Shown here: positions 15,713 through 47,698 of the stretch, in pieces
Layout: the number at the start of each line of letters is the position of its first letter
How positions within the stretch are numbered: position 1 is the stretch's first letter
Assembly: GCA_964515905.1 (NCBI GenBank)
Contig: CAZEWK010000089.1
Location: 13,719 to 77,718, forward strand
DNA: 64,000 nt
Source: an uncultured Rhodospirillaceae bacterium
Lineage (GTDB): Bacteria; Pseudomonadota; Alphaproteobacteria; UBA7887
Reading direction: 5' to 3'
Made by a program: the position numbers and the translations under genes
Notes under the pieces: generated by a model
What the model saw: only the letters and a program-made list of their open reading frames with translations
The model's database searches: none
Told to the model about the DNA's origin: nothing

Positions 15713-17728
15713 TCAGTGCGCCGTTCTAGATCTGGATGCAGATATTGGCAACGAGTCTTGGCTTCGGCGAGGAGCACCAATCCTGTGGCGCCGATCGCTT
15801 AAAGAAAGGACTCCTCCGAATGCCATAATAAAGGCTCCCAGCCAAATCCAAACAACTAATGGATTGTGGTAAATTCGTGTGGACCATCCTCCTTGGCCAT
15901 CTGGATCTCCTACAACAGCGTATAGATCTGCATTCCACCTAGTGTGAATTCCTGCTTCAGTAGTAGGCTGCTGCTGGACCGGGTAAAACCTATTTTCTGG
16001 CCACAATTCAGTTACGAGACTCCCGTCTCTCGTTACCACGAAATGACCCCGATCGACTGAATAATTAGGGCCTTGAGTTTGGGAAACCCCTTGAAACAGG
16101 TATTCGTATCCTGCAACCGATACTGAATCGCCCGGCTCCATTACTTGAATGGCCTCAATTTTCCATGCGCTGGAAGCTGTTATCCCTGCAACCAAGACCG
16201 CAACTCCGAAGTGAGCACACATCATACCGTAAGTAGACCGAGGTATTCTGATTGCCCGGCTAAAACTTCCTGTCAGGGAGCCTTCCAATAACCGAACCCG
16301 TATCACCCAGTCCCATAGCACAGCAACCGCAAGCCAAGCGCTAATAGCCATGCCGAGAGCACCAAAGACCGTGTTACCCCATTTTTGGTAGACGAACCAA
16401 AACAAAACCAGAAATGATACACCTAGCGCTACCCTCATTCTAGCAAACATACCTGCAAGATCCGAACGCTTCCATGTCAGCATTGGTGCTATCCCTGCAA
16501 GCAGTATCAAGGGTGTCATTAGTGGTATGAACACTGTGTTAAAATAGGGCGGTCCTACTGATACCTTGCCTGCACCCAGTGCATCAACAAACAACGGATA
16601 GAGAGTCCCTAATAATACTGTCGCCGCTGCCGCACTAAGCAACAGGTTGTTAATTACCATACCCCCTTCCCTGGAAACGGGCGCAAAAAGACCCCCGGAG
16701 CGAAGTTTGGGGGCTCTTAAAGCAAATAAAATAAATGAACCACCCACTACAATGACTAAGAACCCAAGTATAAATGCACCTCTTGCTGGATCACTCGCGA
16801 ACGAATGCACAGACGTTAACACTCCTGAGCGAACCAGGAATGTCCCTAAAAGACTCAAGGAAAACGTCACAATAGCTAGAAGAATCGTCCAGGCTTTTAA
16901 GGCATCGCGCTTTTCAGACACAATGGAAGAATGCAACAGTGCGGTACCAGCAAGCCAAGGCATAAAAGATGCATTTTCTACTGGGTCCCAATACCACCAG
17001 CCTCCCCAACCTAGCTCATAGTATGCCCACCAGCTTCCTAGAGCGATCCCAATGGTCAGAAAACTCCATGCCACAAGCGTCCAGGGTCGGACCCAACGCG
17101 CCCAAGCGGCATCTACACGTCCCTCCACCAACGCTGCTATCGCAAAGGCAAACGCGATCGAAAAGCCAACGTAACCCAGATACAAAAATGGAGGATGTAT
17201 CGCAAGCCCTGGGTCCTGCAGCAATGGATTTAAGCCGACCCCATCTAAAGGCGCTGGAGCCAAACGTTCGAATGGGTTGGAAGTGAATAAACTAAAGGAT
17301 AGGAAGCCAATAGCTACCAACGCCTGAACAGATAACACCCTAGCACGCAAAGCCGGCGGCAAGTTACCGCCAAACAACACTATCGCACCACCAAACGTCG
17401 ATAGGATAAGAACCCATAACACCAATGAACCCTCATGATTTCCCCATACCCCAGCAATTTTATAGATCAAAGGTTTGGCGGAGTGAGAGTTATTTGCAAC
17501 GTTGGCAACAGAGAAATCTGACGTTACGTAGGCATTCATTAACGCAAAAAACGCAATCAAAATGAAAATCCATTGACCTAGTGCGGCGGTATTTCCAACC
17601 AACATAAGTCGCTCGTCATTACGAGCAGCACCTAACATTGGCACCACTGCTTGGACCAGTGCGATAGTAAGTGCAAAGATTAAAGCGATGTGCCCAAATT
17701 CAGCGATCATTGTGCACTTTCCTTCCAT
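15713..17728 (-). CDS. ccmF: cytochrome c heme lyase subunit CcmF
   Basis: 671 aa polytopic protein with WGGWWYWDPVEN WWD motif. Confidence 0.9.
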   Translation of the reverse strand: MEGKCTMIAEFGHIALIFALTIALVQAVVPMLGAARNDERLMLVGNTAALGQWIFILIAFFALMNAYVTSDFSVANVANNSHSAKPLIYKIAGVWGNHEGSLVLWVLILSTFGGAIVLFGGNLPPALRARVLSVQALVAIGFLSFSLFTSNPFERLAPAPLDGVGLNPLLQDPGLAIHPPFLYLGYVGFSIAFAFAIAALVEGRVDAAWARWVRPWTLVAWSFLTIGIALGSWWAYYELGWGGWWYWDPVENASFMPWLAGTALLHSSIVSEKRDALKAWTILLAIVTFSLSLLGTFLVRSGVLTSVHSFASDPARGAFILGFLVIVVGGSFILFALRAPKLRSGGLFAPVSREGGMVINNLLLSAAAATVLLGTLYPLFVDALGAGKVSVGPPYFNTVFIPLMTPLILLAGIAPMLTWKRSDLAGMFARMRVALGVSFLVLFWFVYQKWGNTVFGALGMAISAWLAVAVLWDWVIRVRLLEGSLTGSFSRAIRIPRSTYGMMCAHFGVAVLVAGITASSAWKIEAIQVMEPGDSVSVAGYEYLFQGVSQTQGPNYSVDRGHFVVTRDGSLVTELWPENRFYPVQQQPTTEAGIHTRWNADLYAVVGDPDGQGGWSTRIYHNPLVVWIWLGAFIMAFGGVLSLSDRRHRIGAPRRSQDSLPISASRSRTAH

Positions 17729-20511: not shown

Positions 20512-20718
20512 ATGCAACAAGAAAGCTTTAATATCAGCACCAGAAGATTTTTAAAGAAAGTAGGTATTACTGCCCAACAAGAAATAGAACGTGCTGTTAG
20601 AGAGGGCATCGCACAAGGCAAAATAAAGGGTAACGAAACATTGTCTGCGCACGTTGACCTGGTTCTGGAAGGGGCTGAACTCCGTCTTACAATTGAAGGA
20701 GAGATTTCTCTCGAATAA
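20512..20718 (+). CDS. DUF6494-family small protein
   Basis: 68 aa from the internal ATG with a GGAGA RBS. ESFNISTRRFLKKVGITAQQEIERAV...LEGAELRLTIEGEISLE resembles the conserved DUF6494 proteins of proteobacteria. Confidence 0.5.
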   Translation: MQQESFNISTRRFLKKVGITAQQEIERAVREGIAQGKIKGNETLSAHVDLVLEGAELRLTIEGEISLE

Positions 20719-23232: not shown

Positions 23233-23706
23233 TTACTTTTTATTTTTCCAACGCTCAGCAGCCACATTATCAGATGAACGCGCCTGCACCCACTTTCCAC
23301 TACCACCACTTTCTTCAAATTTCCAAAAAGGAGCCTTTGTCTTAAGCCAATCAATCAAAAACTGACAACTTTCAAGTGATGCGGCGCGATGGGCGGATGC
23401 CGTTGCAACTAATACAATTTGCTCCCCAGGTTCTAACCTGCCGTATCGATGGATGATACACACTGCATCTAGTGACCAACGTCTGTGTGCTTGGCTTTCT
23501 ATATCTTCTAGCTTCTTTTCTGTCATCCCCGGATAGTGTTCAAGGGTCATTGCACCCAGTTCATCTGGCTCTCCCACATTGCGAACGATGCCAACGAAGC
23601 TCGCTACACCACCAATATTGGGGTTACCCTGTCTGAGCGCTTTTAATTCCGCACTCACGTCAAAATCTTCACGTTGAACCCTAATCATCGCATGTGCCTC
23701 AGCCAC
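23233..23706 (-). CDS. moaE: molybdopterin synthase catalytic subunit MoaE
   Basis: 157 aa with GTG start. GGVASFVGIVRN...LEHYPGMTEK MoaE motifs. Start overlaps the moaD C-terminus. Confidence 0.85.
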   Translation of the reverse strand: MAEAHAMIRVQREDFDVSAELKALRQGNPNIGGVASFVGIVRNVGEPDELGAMTLEHYPGMTEKKLEDIESQAHRRWSLDAVCIIHRYGRLEPGEQIVLVATASAHRAASLESCQFLIDWLKTKAPFWKFEESGGSGKWVQARSSDNVAAERWKNKK

Positions 23707-23950
23707 CGGTCACGGGTGGAAACAAAGCTTCTTCGTCATTTGCACTCTAGGTGTGATCTAAACCAACATATTCTTGATTGACCGCTACTCGAACAACAGA
23801 GTGATCAACTAACGCATCTGCATAGCCGGGCCCTCGCTGGCTCAACCACTCTAGTAACTGTTCTACGTTAGTAACCTCTGTTGGTAAATCCAACTCTTCA
23901 GCGCCTACACCAATTTTTGTTCGTAACCACGCAAAGTAAAGAAGTTGCAT
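23699..23950 (-). pseudogene. moaD: moaD (molybdopterin synthase sulfur carrier) interrupted by an in-frame TAG
   Basis: N-terminal 66 aa (MQLLYFAWLRTKIG...VAVNQEYVGLDHT) ends at TAG 23747-23749. The same frame continues SANDEEALFPPVTGG then TGA at 23699-23701, which is the conserved MoaD C-terminus. The stop sits where a Leu is normally found. Confidence 0.7.
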
Positions 23951-23980: not shown

Positions 23981-25267
23981 TTATTCTAATCCCCTAAATG
24001 GCAAAAAATCGACTAGCTGACCGCTCTCCACATACTCCAGATTTTCCGGCAGTTCGACCATACCATCAGCGAGTGTCACCGCCGAAAGAATTCCTGCTCC
24101 CTGCCTGCCGGACTTATTCGCCACCAAAAACTCATCGTGGCCGGGGTTGAGTGTACATCTAATGAATTCCCGTCGGTTTTTCTTTTTGTTATGTCTGAAA
24201 CCAGCACGAACCGGGAATGTCTTTGGTCCTTGCTCCTTCCCTCCAGCCAGACGCAAAATCAAAGGACGGGCAAATTTTATGAAAGTCACTATGACGGCAA
24301 CTGGATTTCCAGGCAAGCCGAGGTAAGGAACAGGCCCACTTTCAGTGCGCAAAGTCCCAAGCATCAACGGCCGCCCTGGCTTAATAGCTATGCGCCAAAT
24401 ATCAACCCTTCCCAAAGTGTCTAGTACACTACGAACGTGATCCTCTTCGCCGACCGATGCACCTCCAGAACTGACCAATAGATCATGGCTCTTGGCTTCT
24501 TTTTCAATTTGCTTCAACGTTTCTTCAGGATCGTCCGCCAAGATTCCTAAATCGTCCACATCACATCCAAGTGACGATAACATTGATCGCAGCACAATTC
24601 TGTTTGCGTCATAGATTTGTCCAGGACCCAAAGTATCTCCTGGCTCCCTAACTTCGTCCCCTGTTGAAAAAAGGCCAACATGTAGCGGCTTATATACAAC
24701 CACGTCAGTACAACCGGATGCAGCCAACAATCCCAAATCCATCGAACGAAGTCGCCGTCCCGGCTGTAATATTGCGTCACCCTTAGTTACGTCTTCACCT
24801 CGCTCACGTCGATTGGCGCCTCGCTGAATTCCATCCGGCAGGATTACGTTCGTTCCTTCAAATCTACAGTCTTCCTGCATAAAAACCGTGTCTGGCCCCT
24901 GGTCTAGAGTGCCGTCAGGGAGCATAGCACCGGTAAAAACTTGTAATGCTCCGCCCCTCTCCATATCACCTTTCATGGGTAAACCAGCGGCAATGCGGCC
25001 AAGTATTGGCAAGTTCGTCTCTTGATCCGGTATGAGATCCTCAAAATAAACAGCGTATCCATCGACAGCAGAATTTGAATAAGGTGGGACATGGTTTTTC
25101 GCTAATACTGTTTTTGCCACAATCCGGCCATTTGCTGCCTCCAACGGAACCTTCTCAACCTGAGAGATTGGCAGAACGCGATCTTCCAGTAGTGCCAGAG
25201 CATCGCTCAAAGGCAAGAGCTCACCTCCAGTAGCAAAACAGTCTTCGCTAAGCTGAGCCATCATCAT
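23981..25267 (-). CDS. moeA: molybdopterin molybdotransferase MoeA
   Basis: About 428 aa. MoeA N-terminal and MoCF-biosynthesis domains (GYAV, GxxxLGLPGNPVA). Start taken at the MMMAQLSEDC cluster; the longest ORF runs to 25303. Confidence 0.8.
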   Translation of the reverse strand: MMMAQLSEDCFATGGELLPLSDALALLEDRVLPISQVEKVPLEAANGRIVAKTVLAKNHVPPYSNSAVDGYAVYFEDLIPDQETNLPILGRIAAGLPMKGDMERGGALQVFTGAMLPDGTLDQGPDTVFMQEDCRFEGTNVILPDGIQRGANRRERGEDVTKGDAILQPGRRLRSMDLGLLAASGCTDVVVYKPLHVGLFSTGDEVREPGDTLGPGQIYDANRIVLRSMLSSLGCDVDDLGILADDPEETLKQIEKEAKSHDLLVSSGGASVGEEDHVRSVLDTLGRVDIWRIAIKPGRPLMLGTLRTESGPVPYLGLPGNPVAVIVTFIKFARPLILRLAGGKEQGPKTFPVRAGFRHNKKKNRREFIRCTLNPGHDEFLVANKSGRQGAGILSAVTLADGMVELPENLEYVESGQLVDFLPFRGLE

Positions 25268-25772
25268 TCGCCAATAAATTGTAGTGGCCAACAACAAAGT
25301 CACTAATTGAACTTATGTCATCAAGATGGAAGACTGGCCGATCCGCATCCTCTAAAGGTAAATCACTCACGACGGCTAACACTCTTGGATCTGACACGTA
25401 AAGCGGATTTCCTCCACGAGCACCCCTGTAAACTTCGATCTTCGGATGGCTCTCAAATTTAAAGCCCTCAACCAATATCAAATCAACCGGAGAAATTCTC
25501 GCTAATAACTCATTGAGATTCGGCTCGCTTGAACCCCGTAACTCGTGCACTAATGCCCAACGCGAGCTCGAACCAATCATTACCTCTTGGGCTCCAGCCT
25601 CCCGATGCCTATACGAATCCTTTCCGGGCTTATCTATGTCAAAATTTTTGTGCCCGTGCTTGATTGTAGCTATCGTAATTCCCTTTTTTACTAAATTGGT
25701 TATTAGTCGTACCATCAATGTCGTTTTACCGCTGCCACTCCAACCCGCAATACCCAGCACATTCATGGTCAT
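25248..25772 (-). CDS. mobB: molybdopterin-guanine dinucleotide biosynthesis adapter MobB
   Basis: 174 aa, P-loop GIAGWSGSGKTTLMVRLI. Confidence 0.8.
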   Translation of the reverse strand: MTMNVLGIAGWSGSGKTTLMVRLITNLVKKGITIATIKHGHKNFDIDKPGKDSYRHREAGAQEVMIGSSSRWALVHELRGSSEPNLNELLARISPVDLILVEGFKFESHPKIEVYRGARGGNPLYVSDPRVLAVVSDLPLEDADRPVFHLDDISSISDFVVGHYNLLANDDGSA

Positions 25773-34808: not shown

Positions 34809-36875
34809 ATGGATAAAGATACACCTATTCAGGTTAACTATTCGGCATGTCCTCATGACTGCCCCAGCACATGTGCTCTTGAAGTAGAGTTGTTAGACCA
34901 ACATCGGATAGGTCGGGTCCGTGGAGCTAAAGAAAATTCTTATACTTCGGGCATCGTCTGCGCAAAAGTGGCGCGCTACTCTGAACGCACGCATCATCCG
35001 GATCGTTTGATTTCCCCGATGCGTCGAAGCGGTGAAAAGGGAACCGGTGAATTTAAATCTATTTCTTGGGATGACGCCCTAGATGAAGTGGCCGAAGCGT
35101 TCATCCAAACGGCTCAAAAACATGGCTCCGAATCTATATGGCCTTATTTTTATGCTGGAACCATGGGTCTGCTGCAACGTGATGGCATCAATCGACTGCG
35201 CCACGACATGAAATATTCTGGGCAACACAGTACCATTTGCGTAACACTTGTCCAAGCCGGATGGAAAGCAGCCGTAGGGACCCTGCGTGGACCAGACCCA
35301 CGAGAAATGGCGGCCTCCGACTTAATTATTGCCTGGGGTGGAAACCCTGCTTCTACTCAAGTCAACGTAATGACCCATATACAAAAAGCACGGAAAGAGC
35401 GTGGAGCAAAATTTATCGTGGTCGATCCATACCGAACACGCTCTGCTCAAGTATCCGACATGCACCTCGCTTTGAAGCCAGGTACGGATGCAGCAATGGC
35501 CTGTGCGGTAATGCATGTACTTTTTCGGGATGGATTTGCCAACCACAAATATATGTCACAATTTTCGGATTGTCCCGAAGCCCTTGAACATCACTTGCGC
35601 ACACGCACACCCGCATGGGCGGCAAAAATCACTGGTCTGTCAGTCTCAGAGATAGAGACTTTTGCGAAATTGTACGGTCAAACAAAGCGTAGCTACATCC
35701 GAGTGGGATTTGGCTTCTCTCGCTCTCGAAACGGCGCGGTGAATACCCATGCTGTATCCTGCTTGCCAACCATTACTGGAGCTTGGGCTCATAAAGGCGG
35801 TGGAGCATTTCACAGTAATGGTGGCATCTATCATTGGGATAAAACTTTGATAGAAGGTCTTGACTGCCAGGACCCTTCGATTCGCCTGCTGGATCAATGC
35901 AGGATCGGACCAATTTTAACCGGTGATAAAATGGATCTAGCCAACGGGCCAGCAGTGCACGCCATGTTGGTACAAAATACTAACCCGGCAGTGGTGGCTC
36001 CAGAATCAGCCAAAGTGATAGAGGGCCTGCTCCGGGACGATTTATTCTTGTGTGTCCATGAGCAATTTGTAACAGATACTGCTAAATTTGCCGATATTCT
36101 GCTGCCCGCCACCACTTTCGTGGAACATAACGACATATATCAAGCAAGCGGACACCAACATATTACTCTTGGCCCGAAACTTATCGAACCTATTGGTCAA
36201 TCCCGCTCCAATCACAATGTAATCTGCGCAATTGCAAAGCGGGTGGGTGCCACTCATAGGGGTTTCAAAATGACGGAGTGGGAAATTATTGACGAGACGT
36301 TAAAGACCTCTGGTTGGGGTAGCGTTGACGCCTTAAAAGATAACCGTTGGATTGACTGTCAACCGAGTTTTAAGGATTCTCACTTTTTAGATGGATTTGG
36401 GTTCGATGACGGCAAGTTTCGGTTTGCTGCTAACTGGGCCGCTGAAGGGCCCGACCATAAGGCTCTACCGAATCTCCCAGACCACATAGAATTAATCGAA
36501 AAGGCTGATGCAGATCATCCATTCCGACTAGTAACTGCTCCAGCACATAATTACCTAAACACATCGTTTACAGAGACAAAAACTTCTATAGCAAAAGAAG
36601 TGAGACCGACTATTAAACTGTGTAAGGAGGATATCGCGCAATTAAATATGCTCCCTGGGGACAAAGTAAAAGTTGGGAACAGTCGAGGTGAAATTATTGT
36701 GCACGTTGACATTGCCAAAGATCAACAATCAAAAGTCGCAGTAATTGAAGGTATTTGGCCTAATCATGCATTCGAAAACGGGCTCGGTGTAAACACGTTG
36801 ATCGGGGCTGACCCCGGGCCACCGAATGGCGGCGGTGTTTTTCATGATGCTGCAGTTTGGATTAAAAATGCCTGA
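34809..36875 (+). CDS. molybdopterin-dependent oxidoreductase (MopB/COG0243 family) with N-terminal Cys cluster
   Basis: About 688 aa starting MDKDTPIQVNYSACPHDCPSTC (Fe-S motif). Bis-MGD oxidoreductase domains follow. Start abuts the upstream stop with a 2-nt gap. Confidence 0.8.
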   Translation: MDKDTPIQVNYSACPHDCPSTCALEVELLDQHRIGRVRGAKENSYTSGIVCAKVARYSERTHHPDRLISPMRRSGEKGTGEFKSISWDDALDEVAEAFIQTAQKHGSESIWPYFYAGTMGLLQRDGINRLRHDMKYSGQHSTICVTLVQAGWKAAVGTLRGPDPREMAASDLIIAWGGNPASTQVNVMTHIQKARKERGAKFIVVDPYRTRSAQVSDMHLALKPGTDAAMACAVMHVLFRDGFANHKYMSQFSDCPEALEHHLRTRTPAWAAKITGLSVSEIETFAKLYGQTKRSYIRVGFGFSRSRNGAVNTHAVSCLPTITGAWAHKGGGAFHSNGGIYHWDKTLIEGLDCQDPSIRLLDQCRIGPILTGDKMDLANGPAVHAMLVQNTNPAVVAPESAKVIEGLLRDDLFLCVHEQFVTDTAKFADILLPATTFVEHNDIYQASGHQHITLGPKLIEPIGQSRSNHNVICAIAKRVGATHRGFKMTEWEIIDETLKTSGWGSVDALKDNRWIDCQPSFKDSHFLDGFGFDDGKFRFAANWAAEGPDHKALPNLPDHIELIEKADADHPFRLVTAPAHNYLNTSFTETKTSIAKEVRPTIKLCKEDIAQLNMLPGDKVKVGNSRGEIIVHVDIAKDQQSKVAVIEGIWPNHAFENGLGVNTLIGADPGPPNGGGVFHDAAVWIKNA

Positions 36876-36956
36876 ATTCAGCAGCCCCTTCACACGACAA
36901 CGAATAAAAACCAATAAACTATATACCTCACAAAGTCGGACGTAACCAAAACACCT

Positions 36957-37937
36957 ATGTTTATCAAAAACCATCGTAATTGGTATATTCCAGACTCAAA
37001 AGTGACACCAGAAAAGGTATTTTGGAACCGCCGTGAATTCTCCAAAACCGTCATTGCGGGCAGTATTTTAGGTGGGTCAACCAGCAATATTTTTAGTGTT
37101 TTATCACCATCTGAAGCTTTGGCTGAACCGGATTTAAACGCTGACCGTTATCCTGCCCGCATCAACCCTCGATATACAGTGAGACGACCAATTACGCCAG
37201 AGCATCTCGCAACTACTTATAACAATTTCTTTGAATTTGGATCCAGCAAAGACATATGGAAAAGCGCTAAGCAGCTTCCTCTAAGACCTTGGGAGATACG
37301 TCTTGATGGAATGGTTGAGAAACCAATGACATTTGGCGTGGACGACTTGATCAAAAAAATGCCACTTGAAGAGCGCGTGCTCCGGCATCGCTGTGTAGAA
37401 GCCTGGTCAATGACAGTACCTTGGACAGGGTTCCCACTTCGACTTTTACTTGATATTGCCAAACCTTTAAGCCAAGCCAAATACTTGGAAATGTCTGCTT
37501 TTGAATTGCCAGATATTGCTCAAGGACAACGACAAATATGGTTGCCTTGGCCCTACGGGGAGGGCATTACAATAGAAGAGGCTAGCAACGAATTGGCCAT
37601 GCTGGTGGTAGGGGCTTACGGGGCACCACTGCCCCACCAAAATGGAGCCCCACTGCGACTAATTTTGCCATGGAAATATGGCTTTAAATCAATCAAATCC
37701 ATTCAACGCTTTACTTTCACAGACCGCCGTCCAGTAAGTTTCTGGCAAGAGATCGCTGGAAACGAGTATGGCTTTTGGGCCAATGTAAATCCTGAAGTTC
37801 CACACCCGAGATGGAGCCAAGAAACGGAGCGAATGTTGGGGTCGAATGAACGGGTACCAACACGCATTTTTAATGGATATGGGGAGTTTGTGTCGCACCT
37901 ATACACAGACCTTAGAAACGAAAATCTCTTTTTATAA
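36957..37937 (+). CDS. msrP: protein-methionine-sulfoxide reductase catalytic subunit MsrP (YedY)
   Basis: 326 aa. ...CVEAWSMTVPWTGFPL...NGAPLRLILPWKYGFKSIKSI aligns to the MsrP sulfite-oxidase-fold Moco domain. Confidence 0.85.
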   Translation: MFIKNHRNWYIPDSKVTPEKVFWNRREFSKTVIAGSILGGSTSNIFSVLSPSEALAEPDLNADRYPARINPRYTVRRPITPEHLATTYNNFFEFGSSKDIWKSAKQLPLRPWEIRLDGMVEKPMTFGVDDLIKKMPLEERVLRHRCVEAWSMTVPWTGFPLRLLLDIAKPLSQAKYLEMSAFELPDIAQGQRQIWLPWPYGEGITIEEASNELAMLVVGAYGAPLPHQNGAPLRLILPWKYGFKSIKSIQRFTFTDRRPVSFWQEIAGNEYGFWANVNPEVPHPRWSQETERMLGSNERVPTRIFNGYGEFVSHLYTDLRNENLFL

Positions 37938-37957
37938 TGAGCATTAGGTTCTAGTAA

Positions 37958-38629
37958 GTGCTAAATATTTCGCCCGCTCTAATTATTTTTGATTGTGATG
38001 GTGTTCTGGTAGATTCTGAGCCAATTGCAAATCGAATATTAGCTCAATCGCTGAGCAAAGAAGGCTATGAATGTTCTTTTGAGGACTCGATTGAGAAGTT
38101 CGTGGGAAGGGACCTCACCACTATTGTAAATCAGGTTGAGACAGAATTAGGCCGAGAACTTTCAGAAAGATTTTTTGAACAATTGCAGGCTCAAACTTAT
38201 GCTACCTTTCAGAAATATCTAAAACCGGTCCCGGGTATTGGTGCCGTTTTAGGCAAGATTTCGTTGCCCAAGTGTGTCGCATCCTCAGGGACTATTGATA
38301 AGATAGAATTTACTTTGACCTTGACTGGGCTGCGACATCATTTTGGGAGCGCAGTTTTTAGTGCCAGTCAAGTACCTCGAGGCAAGCCCTATCCAGACTT
38401 ATTTCTCCACGCAGCGCAACAATTTAGCGTTTCACCAAACGCGTGTATCGTAGTCGAAGACAGTATACCAGGCGTTCTGGGTGCCCGTGCAGCAGGAATG
38501 CATGTGTTAGGTTATGCGGGTGGAACTCATGTTAGACCAAATCATGATCATCTTTTAACTGAAGCTGGAGCACAGGTTTTTCTTTCTATGACCAGTCTCC
38601 CCAAACTGTTAACCACCAAATTCGAATAA
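37958..38629 (+). CDS. HAD-IA family hydrolase
   Basis: 223 aa, IIFDCDGVLVDSE motif I and later SxxG and VEDSxxG motifs. Confidence 0.8.
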   Translation: MLNISPALIIFDCDGVLVDSEPIANRILAQSLSKEGYECSFEDSIEKFVGRDLTTIVNQVETELGRELSERFFEQLQAQTYATFQKYLKPVPGIGAVLGKISLPKCVASSGTIDKIEFTLTLTGLRHHFGSAVFSASQVPRGKPYPDLFLHAAQQFSVSPNACIVVEDSIPGVLGARAAGMHVLGYAGGTHVRPNHDHLLTEAGAQVFLSMTSLPKLLTTKFE

Positions 38630-44274: not shown

Positions 44275-45129
44275 CTACCAAGAAATGGGCCACGCCCACA
44301 AATCTGTATGCCCAACATCCAATTGAGAATGGCATTGCTCAATTGCTGTGAGTCGAAATTTCAACCAGTCGCGAGTTTCCTGACTTTTGTCCACCAGACC
44401 CATCCAATCTTTGATAAGTGCTGTTTGAAGATCCAAATCGGCTTTTCCCAATGCCCAAGCACTTGGGGCAGTTATAACGTCGTATCCTGCGTGGCGAAGT
44501 GCACACTCTAATACAGAGACAGCACGTGACCCAAGCCCCTCTCCAAAGCCTTTATCTCGACGTTGATCATAATTTAAGGCGTCTAGGACCAGTGAGTCTG
44601 TGGGGTGAGCTGGGCCAAAAGTTACACAGCCGTTGTAGTTCAGGCACGCGTATACACATGCTTGAGTCTCAGAACACCAATCTACAAACTTCATACACCA
44701 ACTAGCGGAGACCAGGTCTAAAAAAGCGGAAACAGTTACTAAATCAATCTCTGAAGGTCTGTCCCCAAAGCCTCTTGATAAATCACAATCATGGAAAGTT
44801 AACTCATAATCTTTGTCATCACCGTATATCTCTAGGCGATCTGGGGCTATCTTTGTCTGCAAGCCATTTTGTTGGCCCCACTTACAAAGGTTAGTTTTTG
44901 CTGCCGCAAGCAATGAGTCTGAGTGATCCATGAGTCTCCATGACTGCCCTAATCCCAAATAAGGGGCCAATGCCCGGATACAACTTCCAGTGCCAGAGGC
45001 TATGTCAATGGCCGAAATATGATCGAAGTGTTGTGACCAACAGTGCAGAACCGCTAATAGGTCTTTGTTGCGTGCACGAGAATCTGCTGGTTCACGTAAA
45101 TTTAACCAGTCAACCGTAAACCCACTCAT
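44275..45129 (-). CDS. class I SAM-dependent methyltransferase
   Basis: 284 aa, DIASGTGS motif I-like glycine-rich segment. Last gene of a four-gene minus-strand operon, overlapping the glycosyltransferase stop. Confidence 0.55.
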   Translation of the reverse strand: MSGFTVDWLNLREPADSRARNKDLLAVLHCWSQHFDHISAIDIASGTGSCIRALAPYLGLGQSWRLMDHSDSLLAAAKTNLCKWGQQNGLQTKIAPDRLEIYGDDKDYELTFHDCDLSRGFGDRPSEIDLVTVSAFLDLVSASWCMKFVDWCSETQACVYACLNYNGCVTFGPAHPTDSLVLDALNYDQRRDKGFGEGLGSRAVSVLECALRHAGYDVITAPSAWALGKADLDLQTALIKDWMGLVDKSQETRDWLKFRLTAIEQCHSQLDVGHTDLWAWPISW

Positions 45130-46687: not shown

Positions 46688-47698
46688 CTAAACGTGATCA
46701 TCATACTGAGCAACGACCCCCGAATACGTCACACAATGACAAAGCTCTTGGTTGGTTGGCAGAGTAATTCGACGCATTGTTTCTGGTAGTTGTTCAAACT
46801 CACTATGGCCAGAAATCAGTTGATCCAGTATGTCGTCAGCAAGAAGATCAAGCGCCAAAGATAAACGTCGGCGATAATCCCAACGGGATCTCTGGGTAAT
46901 CCCGACCTGCCCAACTTGTGAAGATTGCAACCTAAGTCGCTTGGAGTGAAACCCTTCGCCCAAGGGTAACTTCACAGTTTGTTTTCCGAACCAACTCAAC
47001 TCTAGAATTGTCGCCTCTTTTCCCGCCAATTCAAGTGCCAGATGCAATCCCTCCTGCGACCCAGAAGCGTGAATCACCATGTCACCTGATCCTGAGGCAT
47101 TTTTGGCTTCAGAGAACTTAACGCCCAAAGCACTGGTAACATTTTTCTTACATGGATCGATATCGACCATCAGCACCCGGGTTCCTGGAATCTGGTTAAC
47201 GAGGTACGCTGCCAGGCACCCAATGACGCCAGCGCCAACGACTATCACATCTGAACCAATTGCCACCGGGGAGTCCCAGAGACCATTAATAGCAGTCTCC
47301 ATGTTGGCCGCCAAAATTGCACGACCCTTGGGGACATTTGCTGGGATCGGCACCACGGATTCCTCTGGCACAACGTAAAAATCCTGGTGTGGGAAAAGGC
47401 AAAAAACAGCCCGATTTAACAAACTAGCCGGGCCCTTCAATACAAGCCCGACATTCGAGTATCCATATTTCACTGGTCCTGGGAAGTTTCCCTCCTGAAA
47501 CGGAGCACGCATAATCTGATGCTGGCTGGCTGGAACGTTACCCTTATAGACCAGACTTTCGGTTCCCCGGCTAATACCACTAAACAGTGTTTGAACCAAA
47601 ACCTCCCCTTCCCGAGGCTCCACCAATGGTGTTCGGAGTATCTGACCGTTTCCAGGTGCTTGCACCCAAAACGCGTGGGCATAAAGGGCCGTGGTCAT
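46688..47698 (-). CDS. medium-chain dehydrogenase/reductase, BchC-like subfamily lacking canonical zinc ligands
   Basis: 336 aa. FSGISRGTE and YGYSNVG sit where Zn-ADHs have CxxC and GHE. GAGVIGCLAAY Rossmann motif. Confidence 0.65.
   Translation of the reverse strand: MTTALYAHAFWVQAPGNGQILRTPLVEPREGEVLVQTLFSGISRGTESLVYKGNVPASQHQIMRAPFQEGNFPGPVKYGYSNVGLVLKGPASLLNRAVFCLFPHQDFYVVPEESVVPIPANVPKGRAILAANMETAINGLWDSPVAIGSDVIVVGAGVIGCLAAYLVNQIPGTRVLMVDIDPCKKNVTSALGVKFSEAKNASGSGDMVIHASGSQEGLHLALELAGKEATILELSWFGKQTVKLPLGEGFHSKRLRLQSSQVGQVGITQRSRWDYRRRLSLALDLLADDILDQLISGHSEFEQLPETMRRITLPTNQELCHCVTYSGVVAQYDDHV

Follow-up and report, generated by a model that had tools for sequence, protein, structure and literature searches.

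Gene organization of the moaD region

The window, i.e. the whole 64-kb stretch of DNA that was analysed, carries on its minus strand a gene string consisting of a CDP-alcohol phosphatidyltransferase gene (pgsA-like), mobB, moeA, moaD and moaE. Two genes that encode Moco-dependent enzymes are located on the plus strand. The features are as follows.

23233–23688, minus strand: moaE, 151 aa, intact (PF02391; NCBIfam MoaE, E = 3e-47)
23699–23950, minus strand: moaD frame of 83 codons and a TGA, broken by a stop at codon 68 (ORF list, translation, TIGR01682)
23702–23707, minus strand: codons 82–83 of moaD, the Gly-Gly of the MoaD tail, encoded but 3' of the premature stop
23729–23731, minus strand: codon 74 of moaD, GAA (Glu); the changed base is 23730, T on the plus strand (A in the others)
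23747–23749, minus strand: in-frame TAG, codon 68 of moaD; the changed base is 23748, T on the plus strand (A in the others)
23981–25261, minus strand: moeA, 426 aa, intact (database look-up and NCBIfam)
25248–25766, minus strand: mobB, 172 aa, intact (TIGR00176, 163 bits against a cut-off of 76)
34809–36875, plus strand: MopB-family molybdopterin oxidoreductase, a Moco client, 688 aa, intact (PF04879/PF00384/PF01568)
36957–37937, plus strand: MsrP, a Moco client, 326 aa, intact (NF003767, 399 bits against a cut-off of 207)

An initial annotation of this DNA had described moaE, moeA and mobB as intact, and had named a MopB oxidoreductase and MsrP among the encoded enzymes. Both descriptions agree with the present results, which are based on protein look-ups and NCBIfam models for the three biosynthetic genes and on Pfam and NCBIfam matches for the two enzymes. 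The MopB-family enzyme reaches no NCBIfam equivalog cut-off, and its gene differs from the other contigs by two synonymous window-private changes and by T512S. The exact MsrP protein of the window is also encoded on an independent scaffold (scaffold_286, see below). Within 34809–38629, msrP lies directly downstream of the MopB gene and is followed by a HAD phosphatase gene, not by msrQ.

The characteristic pairing of moaD with a moaE gene directly downstream is present in the window, and the same arrangement is found in relatives. The start of moaE had been placed initially so that it overlaps the TGA of moaD, but this placement is not borne out. The GTG at 23706, which overlaps the moaD TGA, is merely the start of the longest ORF, and the resulting 157-aa version of the protein is found on no other contig, whereas the exact 151-aa MoaE that begins at ATG 23688 (MIRVQREDFD) is present on 11 other contigs. 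The MIRVQREDFD start is also kept in two relatives (L012 and L015, see below). The ATG at 23688 lies 10 nt past the moaD TGA, and a GAGG sequence in the spacer (23700–23697), overlapping the moaD stop, is a putative ribosome-binding site of moaE.

The interrupted moaD reading frame

Translation of the minus strand of the window at 23690–23950 reads MQLLYFAWLRTKIGVGAEELDLPTEVTNVEQLLEWLSQRGPGYADALVDHSVVRVAVNQEYVGLDHT as far as the first stop codon, and then continues in the same frame as SANDEEALFPPVTGG to the second stop. The assignment of this frame to moaD, already made in the initial annotation, is supported by a family model, by alignment with a structure in the PDB and by the surrounding string of Moco genes. 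When codon 68 is read as Leu, the conceptual protein reaches 82.9 bits on the NCBIfam model TIGR01682 (moaD) and passes its cut-off of 66.15 bits; this result is evidence on the ancestry of the gene, not on its present product. A phmmer search of the PDB aligned residues 2–83 of the conceptual MoaD with E. coli MoaD (1FM0, chain D; E = 6e-11). The intact copies of the protein in conspecific contigs carry the Pfam domain PF02597 (ThiS-MoaD).

The TAG at 23747–23749 was seen in the moaD frame on translation, as had been reported, and is codon 68. In the phmmer alignment, it is placed opposite Leu66 of 1FM0_D, in line with the earlier statement that the stop falls at a Leu position of E. coli MoaD, and codon 74 is placed opposite Val72. 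The product as written has 67 aa according to the ORF listing. It scores 56.9 bits on TIGR01682, below the cut-off, and does not end in Gly-Gly. Additionally, the equivalent of E. coli Val72, which is expected to be Val or Ile in a functional MoaD, is Glu in the window.

The frame beyond the TAG comprises 15 in-frame codons and ends in FPPVTGG, followed by the terminal TGA at 23701–23699. Thus, the earlier claim that the canonical C-terminus lies intact downstream of the stop holds only in part: the frame does run to the Gly-Gly codons and the TGA, but the tail segment is itself altered by a private and radical change, V74E. A tblastn search with the intact MoaD allele matched residues 1–83 of the window moaD with 97.6% identity. 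Identity to the intact allele thus accounts for the continuation of the frame beyond the TAG, which is not a chance ORF. A check for a second copy of moaD had been proposed and was carried out on the window, where neither tblastn nor a scan for ORFs ending in Gly-Gly identified a second moaD or a thiS-like carrier.

The same gene in conspecific contigs and relatives

Conspecific contigs were gathered by an exact look-up of the MoaE protein, followed by a look-up of the intact 83-aa MoaD. The contigs come from marine metagenomes (Station ALOHA, BATS and other runs) and share 99.5–99.9% DNA identity with the window. The intact 83-aa MoaD, with Leu68 and Val74, is found on 15 contigs from about 14 samples. 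At the DNA level, codons 68 and 74 are TTG and GTA in all eight conspecific contigs that were read over the site. A degenerate-pattern scan of JGI metagenomes that allowed either allele returned one contig, which also carries TTG/GTA. Compared to its conspecifics, the window moaD shows two changes 18 nt apart, TTG to TAG at codon 68 and GTA to GAA at codon 74 (V74E). Both are A to T on the plus strand, i.e. T to A on the coding strand. Since the near-identical environmental contigs all have TTG, a single base change suffices to produce the stop, as had been suggested.

Both positions are well conserved among 80 GTDB relatives. The column of codon 68 contains Val (51), Leu (16) and Ile (13), and that of codon 74 contains Val (59) and Ile (21). 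A stop at codon 68 was found in none of the approximately 14 conspecific samples and in none of the 80 relatives. The 67-aa product is on record once, on an NCBI contig of 157,452 bp with the exact MoaE of the window, which is presumably the window's own record; it was found in no other assembly. The scan of GTDB genomes returned no conspecific genome, and the best match was MarineAlpha9_Bin7, the nearest relative with a name, at 73% MoaE identity. Judged from its sequence, the window moaD is a candidate recent nonsense pseudogene, in that it bears a disabling lesion at a site where the orthologues of close relatives are intact and conserved. The titles and abstract openings of the literature on moaD pseudogenes contained nothing pertinent to this case.

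Soundness of the assembly and clustered private substitutions

The window was tiled against an independent 82.7-kb ALOHA scaffold (scaffold_286) and against other contigs. Over 59,031 bp, the window and scaffold_286 differ by 66 substitutions and no indels. The SNPs that are private to the window number 44, consisting of 27 synonymous, 15 non-synonymous, one intergenic and one nonsense change, the last being the TAG of moaD. The excess of synonymous changes among these SNPs indicates that most of the differences are genuine polymorphisms that have passed through selection. The assembly of the window, moaD aside, appears to be sound, and the base differences appear to be mostly real.

Changes from A to T on the plus strand make up seven of the 44 private SNPs, and five of these seven fall into two tight clusters, one of them in ccmF.

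15713–17710, minus strand: ccmF
16992, 17003 and 17012 (within 21 nt), plus-strand changes: private A>T cluster in ccmF, two synonymous changes and F246Y
23730 and 23748, plus-strand changes: private A>T cluster in moaD, V74E and the nonsense change

This same-type clustering of private A>T changes is non-random (p = 7.5e-5, with mutation labels permuted over the SNP positions). Each cluster is therefore best regarded as the outcome of one event, which may be a multi-nucleotide mutation or a local artefact. Taken this way, the two radical changes within 18 nt need not have occurred independently, which would have seemed improbable. No shared motif, such as a methylation motif, is evident by eye around the five clustered sites. 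The ccmF cluster, with its two synonymous changes and one Phe to Tyr replacement, looks as if it had been filtered by selection. The window allele of ccmF that carries the cluster has no other database record. The same is true of CcmI Y61H, an ordinary private allele without an A>T cluster. Since this ordinary allele is equally unrecorded, the absence of the moaD and ccmF alleles elsewhere is weak evidence.

Another private pair, at 20546 and 20562, is located in a DUF6494 gene (20512–20718, plus strand) and consists of K12R and one synonymous change. It is absent from five long contigs that cover this region and present in three short contigs from other samples, and is, on the evidence of these contigs, a genuine segregating haplotype. 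No independent contig of the window haplotype was found to span moaD; the contigs with the DUF6494 allele (532–721 bp) stop short of it.

Differences in stop codons are also seen in the other direction. Scaffold_286 has its own TTG to TAG change at window position 47127, within a hypothetical gene (46688–47698, 336 aa). Together with a shifted stop at 44278, this change indicates that nonsense and stop-shift polymorphisms exist in the population. The hypothetical gene is split into products of 130 and 190 aa in scaffold_286, and is also split in another contig (L096). At 44278, codon 284 of the gene at 44275–45129 is TGA in scaffold_286 and TGG in the window, and the product has 283 aa in the former and 284 aa in the latter.

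Damaged moaD genes in other assemblies

The moaD gene is damaged in seven of the 80 GTDB relatives (~9%), by one TAA, one lost stop and five frameshifts. The TAA is located at codon 64 of moaD in relative L015 (DAIMFL010000125.1, 2743–2994), whose contig has an assembler-given name that indicates 5.5x coverage. The MoaD of this relative is 63% identical, its TAA lies four codons upstream of the position of the window TAG, and the equivalent codon encodes Asp or Glu in most other relatives. The lost stop was found in MarineAlpha9_Bin7 (L012; PTKD01000001.1, 2738–3003), where moaD has no stop after the Gly-Gly and reads PPVTGGCGGPG into the start of moaE before terminating. This extension is either an error or represents a MoaD that needs C-terminal processing to expose the Gly-Gly. 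The five frameshifts occur in MFD MAGs (L026, L053, L061, L064 and L091), which we take to be long-read assemblies, and probably stem from homopolymer errors in GC-rich DNA. Broken moaD genes in draft genomes are thus not rare and are often of technical origin.

In one contig from BATS (L007), moeA has a nonsense change and has lost 206 bp, and a 110-bp deletion removes the start of moaD. Five comparable deletions are found in a second contig of the same BATS assembly (L104), where they affect unrelated genes such as ccmI and that of an acyl-CoA synthetase. Relative to the window, the deletions in these two contigs (ENA ERZ23486382, BATS20-1 scaffolds 33058 and 10262) are about 50–240 bp long, with about 3 bp of microhomology. 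Decay of Moco genes at the population level, for which the first contig might have been taken as evidence, was ruled out by the deletions in unrelated genes of the second, which mark them as assembly artefacts.

Origin of the premature stop

Three explanations had been proposed initially for the TAG: a sequencing or assembly error, a very recent nonsense mutation, and read-through or suppression of the stop. The first two remain standing. The reading that we favour, with some reserve, is that the TAG belongs to a recent, lineage-private, inactivating double substitution and that no programming is involved. Several observations count for this reading. The lesion is private when compared to the 15 intact contigs and falls in conserved columns. 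The assembly is reliable elsewhere, with no indels and an excess of synonymous changes, so that the base differences are mostly real. The pattern of the A>T clusters makes a single mutation event plausible, and the TTG to TAG change at 47127 of scaffold_286 indicates that nonsense alleles do segregate in the population. The two changes in moaD would then most likely have arisen together, by one multi-nucleotide mutation event in the sequenced genome. Other observations count against it. Both A>T clusters are present in no other dataset, and their odd clustering also resembles an artefact of amplification or polishing. The other Moco genes of the window and both Moco enzymes are intact, with no relaxed selection seen, and this intactness is as compatible with an error as with a very young mutation. 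Finally, about 9% of the relatives represented by public MAGs have a damaged moaD, and in most of them the damage is evidently technical.

The main alternative is a sequence artefact, in which the A>T calls in moaD (two) and ccmF (three) were produced during amplification, sequencing, assembly or polishing, and the true moaD sequence is TTG/GTA. We consider an artefact of this kind a substantial possibility, although one that falls short of being probable. The TAG allele is unique to the window's record against 15 intact contigs, and both changes affect near-invariant hydrophobic positions in an operon that is otherwise intact, as are the client enzymes. The same-type clustering of A>T changes is non-random, the ccmF allele with the other cluster is likewise unrecorded elsewhere, and technically damaged moaD genes are common in public MAGs (five frameshifts and one TAA at 5.5x coverage). 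However, the 59 kb compared are free of indels and have the moaD TAG as their only nonsense change, and the private differences are mostly synonymous. Substitution errors that reach the consensus are rare, and CcmI Y61H is equally unrecorded without belonging to an A>T cluster. Moreover, the ccmF cluster is mainly synonymous, whereas random error would give a synonymous change at only about one in four sites.

In a bolder version of the mutational reading, both A>T clusters would be genuine traces of multi-nucleotide mutation by an error-prone, strand-specific process, and the moaD knockout would mark the point at which an open-ocean sub-lineage becomes Moco-auxotrophic or Moco-free. We regard this version as unlikely.

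Ongoing loss of the Moco pathway is a still less credible explanation. According to it, this oligotrophic marine lineage can do without MsrP and the MopB enzyme, selection on the pathway is relaxed, and pseudogenisation has begun with the TAG. The second radical change (V74E) 3' of the stop, the lesions in moeA and moaD of the BATS contig and the TAA in moaD of relative L015 could be seen in this light. However, the deletions in the BATS assembly are assembly artefacts, as indicated by its second contig, and not Moco-specific decay; 15 contigs keep an identical intact MoaD and 11 keep an identical MoaE; and MoeA, MobB, MoaE, MsrP and the MopB enzyme are all intact in the window.

Programmed decoding of the TAG into full-length MoaD, by an amber suppressor tRNA, by pyrrolysine insertion or by context-dependent read-through, is highly improbable. 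The frame does continue past the TAG without interruption to the Gly-Gly codons and the TGA, and some basal read-through of UAG by near-cognate tRNAs is common to all bacteria, but this open frame is already accounted for by the 97.6% identity to the intact allele. Moreover, the stop is conserved in none of the approximately 14 conspecific samples and in none of the 80 relatives, TAG is a usual terminator in the window (14 of the 57 long, non-overlapping ORFs), and a read-through MoaD would still bear V74E in a column that is Val or Ile in 80 of 80 relatives. Two specific routes to such decoding were examined and rejected. Genome-wide reassignment of TAG is contradicted by its use as a terminator in those 14 ORFs and by the finding that no other gene is broken by a TAG when compared to the independent scaffold. 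A suppressor tRNA inside the window is contradicted by ARAGORN, which found no tRNA genes in the 64 kb. The initial suggestion of read-through or suppression is therefore unsupported.

Predicted consequences for molybdopterin synthesis

In E. coli, MoeB adenylates and thiocarboxylates the C-terminal tail of MoaD, and this tail inserts into MoaE. If the double substitution favoured above is real, translation of the window moaD would halt after residue 67 and, by analogy with E. coli MoaD, MoaE and MoeB, would yield a MoaD without its last β-strand and without the FPPVTGG tail. By the same analogy, the 67-aa protein would be unable to give sulfur to cPMP, and the molybdopterin synthase would be dead. 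The moaE gene would probably still be translated from its own GAGG and ATG. The MopB enzyme and MsrP would lack Moco unless the genome has a gene for another carrier outside the window. The persistence of the allele may reflect a very young age, or it may reflect that the MopB and MsrP enzymes are conditionally dispensable.

Comparison with known systems and implications

The interrupted gene closely resembles that of E. coli MoaD (PDB codes 1FM0 and 1FMA with MoaE; 1JW9 with MoeB). Both encode a β-grasp protein of 81–83 aa in the same register with an FPPVTGG C-terminus, and both lie immediately upstream of moaE. In contrast to E. coli MoaD, the codon for Leu66 is TAG, Val72 is replaced by Glu, and the product ends at residue 67 with no Gly-Gly.

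The lesion is similar to recent (unitary) nonsense pseudogenes and to segregating loss-of-function alleles, in which a single-base disabling lesion is found while the orthologues are intact and other decay is not seen. The same population contains a second nonsense allele, the TTG to TAG change of scaffold_286 at window position 47127. The putative moaD lesion differs from ordinary nonsense pseudogenes by a linked transversion 18 nt away, which is part of the A>T cluster pattern. In this respect, it resembles the clustered multi-nucleotide mutations attributed to error-prone DNA synthesis, in that the 59 kb contain two groups of same-type substitutions, each confined to about 20 nt of one strand. 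The sequence of the window clusters points to no assignable polymerase or mechanism, and their pattern could be technical. The resemblance to amber suppression or pyrrolysine decoding does not go beyond the UAG within the frame of a gene that is otherwise in good order. Here, in contrast to those systems, the UAG is not conserved, TAG is not avoided, and no suppressor or pyrrolysine machinery is present in the window.

In every likely reading, the moaD TAG belongs to an ordinary and already known kind of event and carries little weight beyond annotation. Whether it is real or an error, it lends no support to amber suppression or to a variant genetic code. An error would warn against taking single-base stops in draft genomes for recoding. 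If it is real, this marine alphaproteobacterial genome would make no molybdopterin, although the species normally has MsrP and the MopB enzyme, and metabolic reconstructions should then not credit the genome with an active form of either enzyme.
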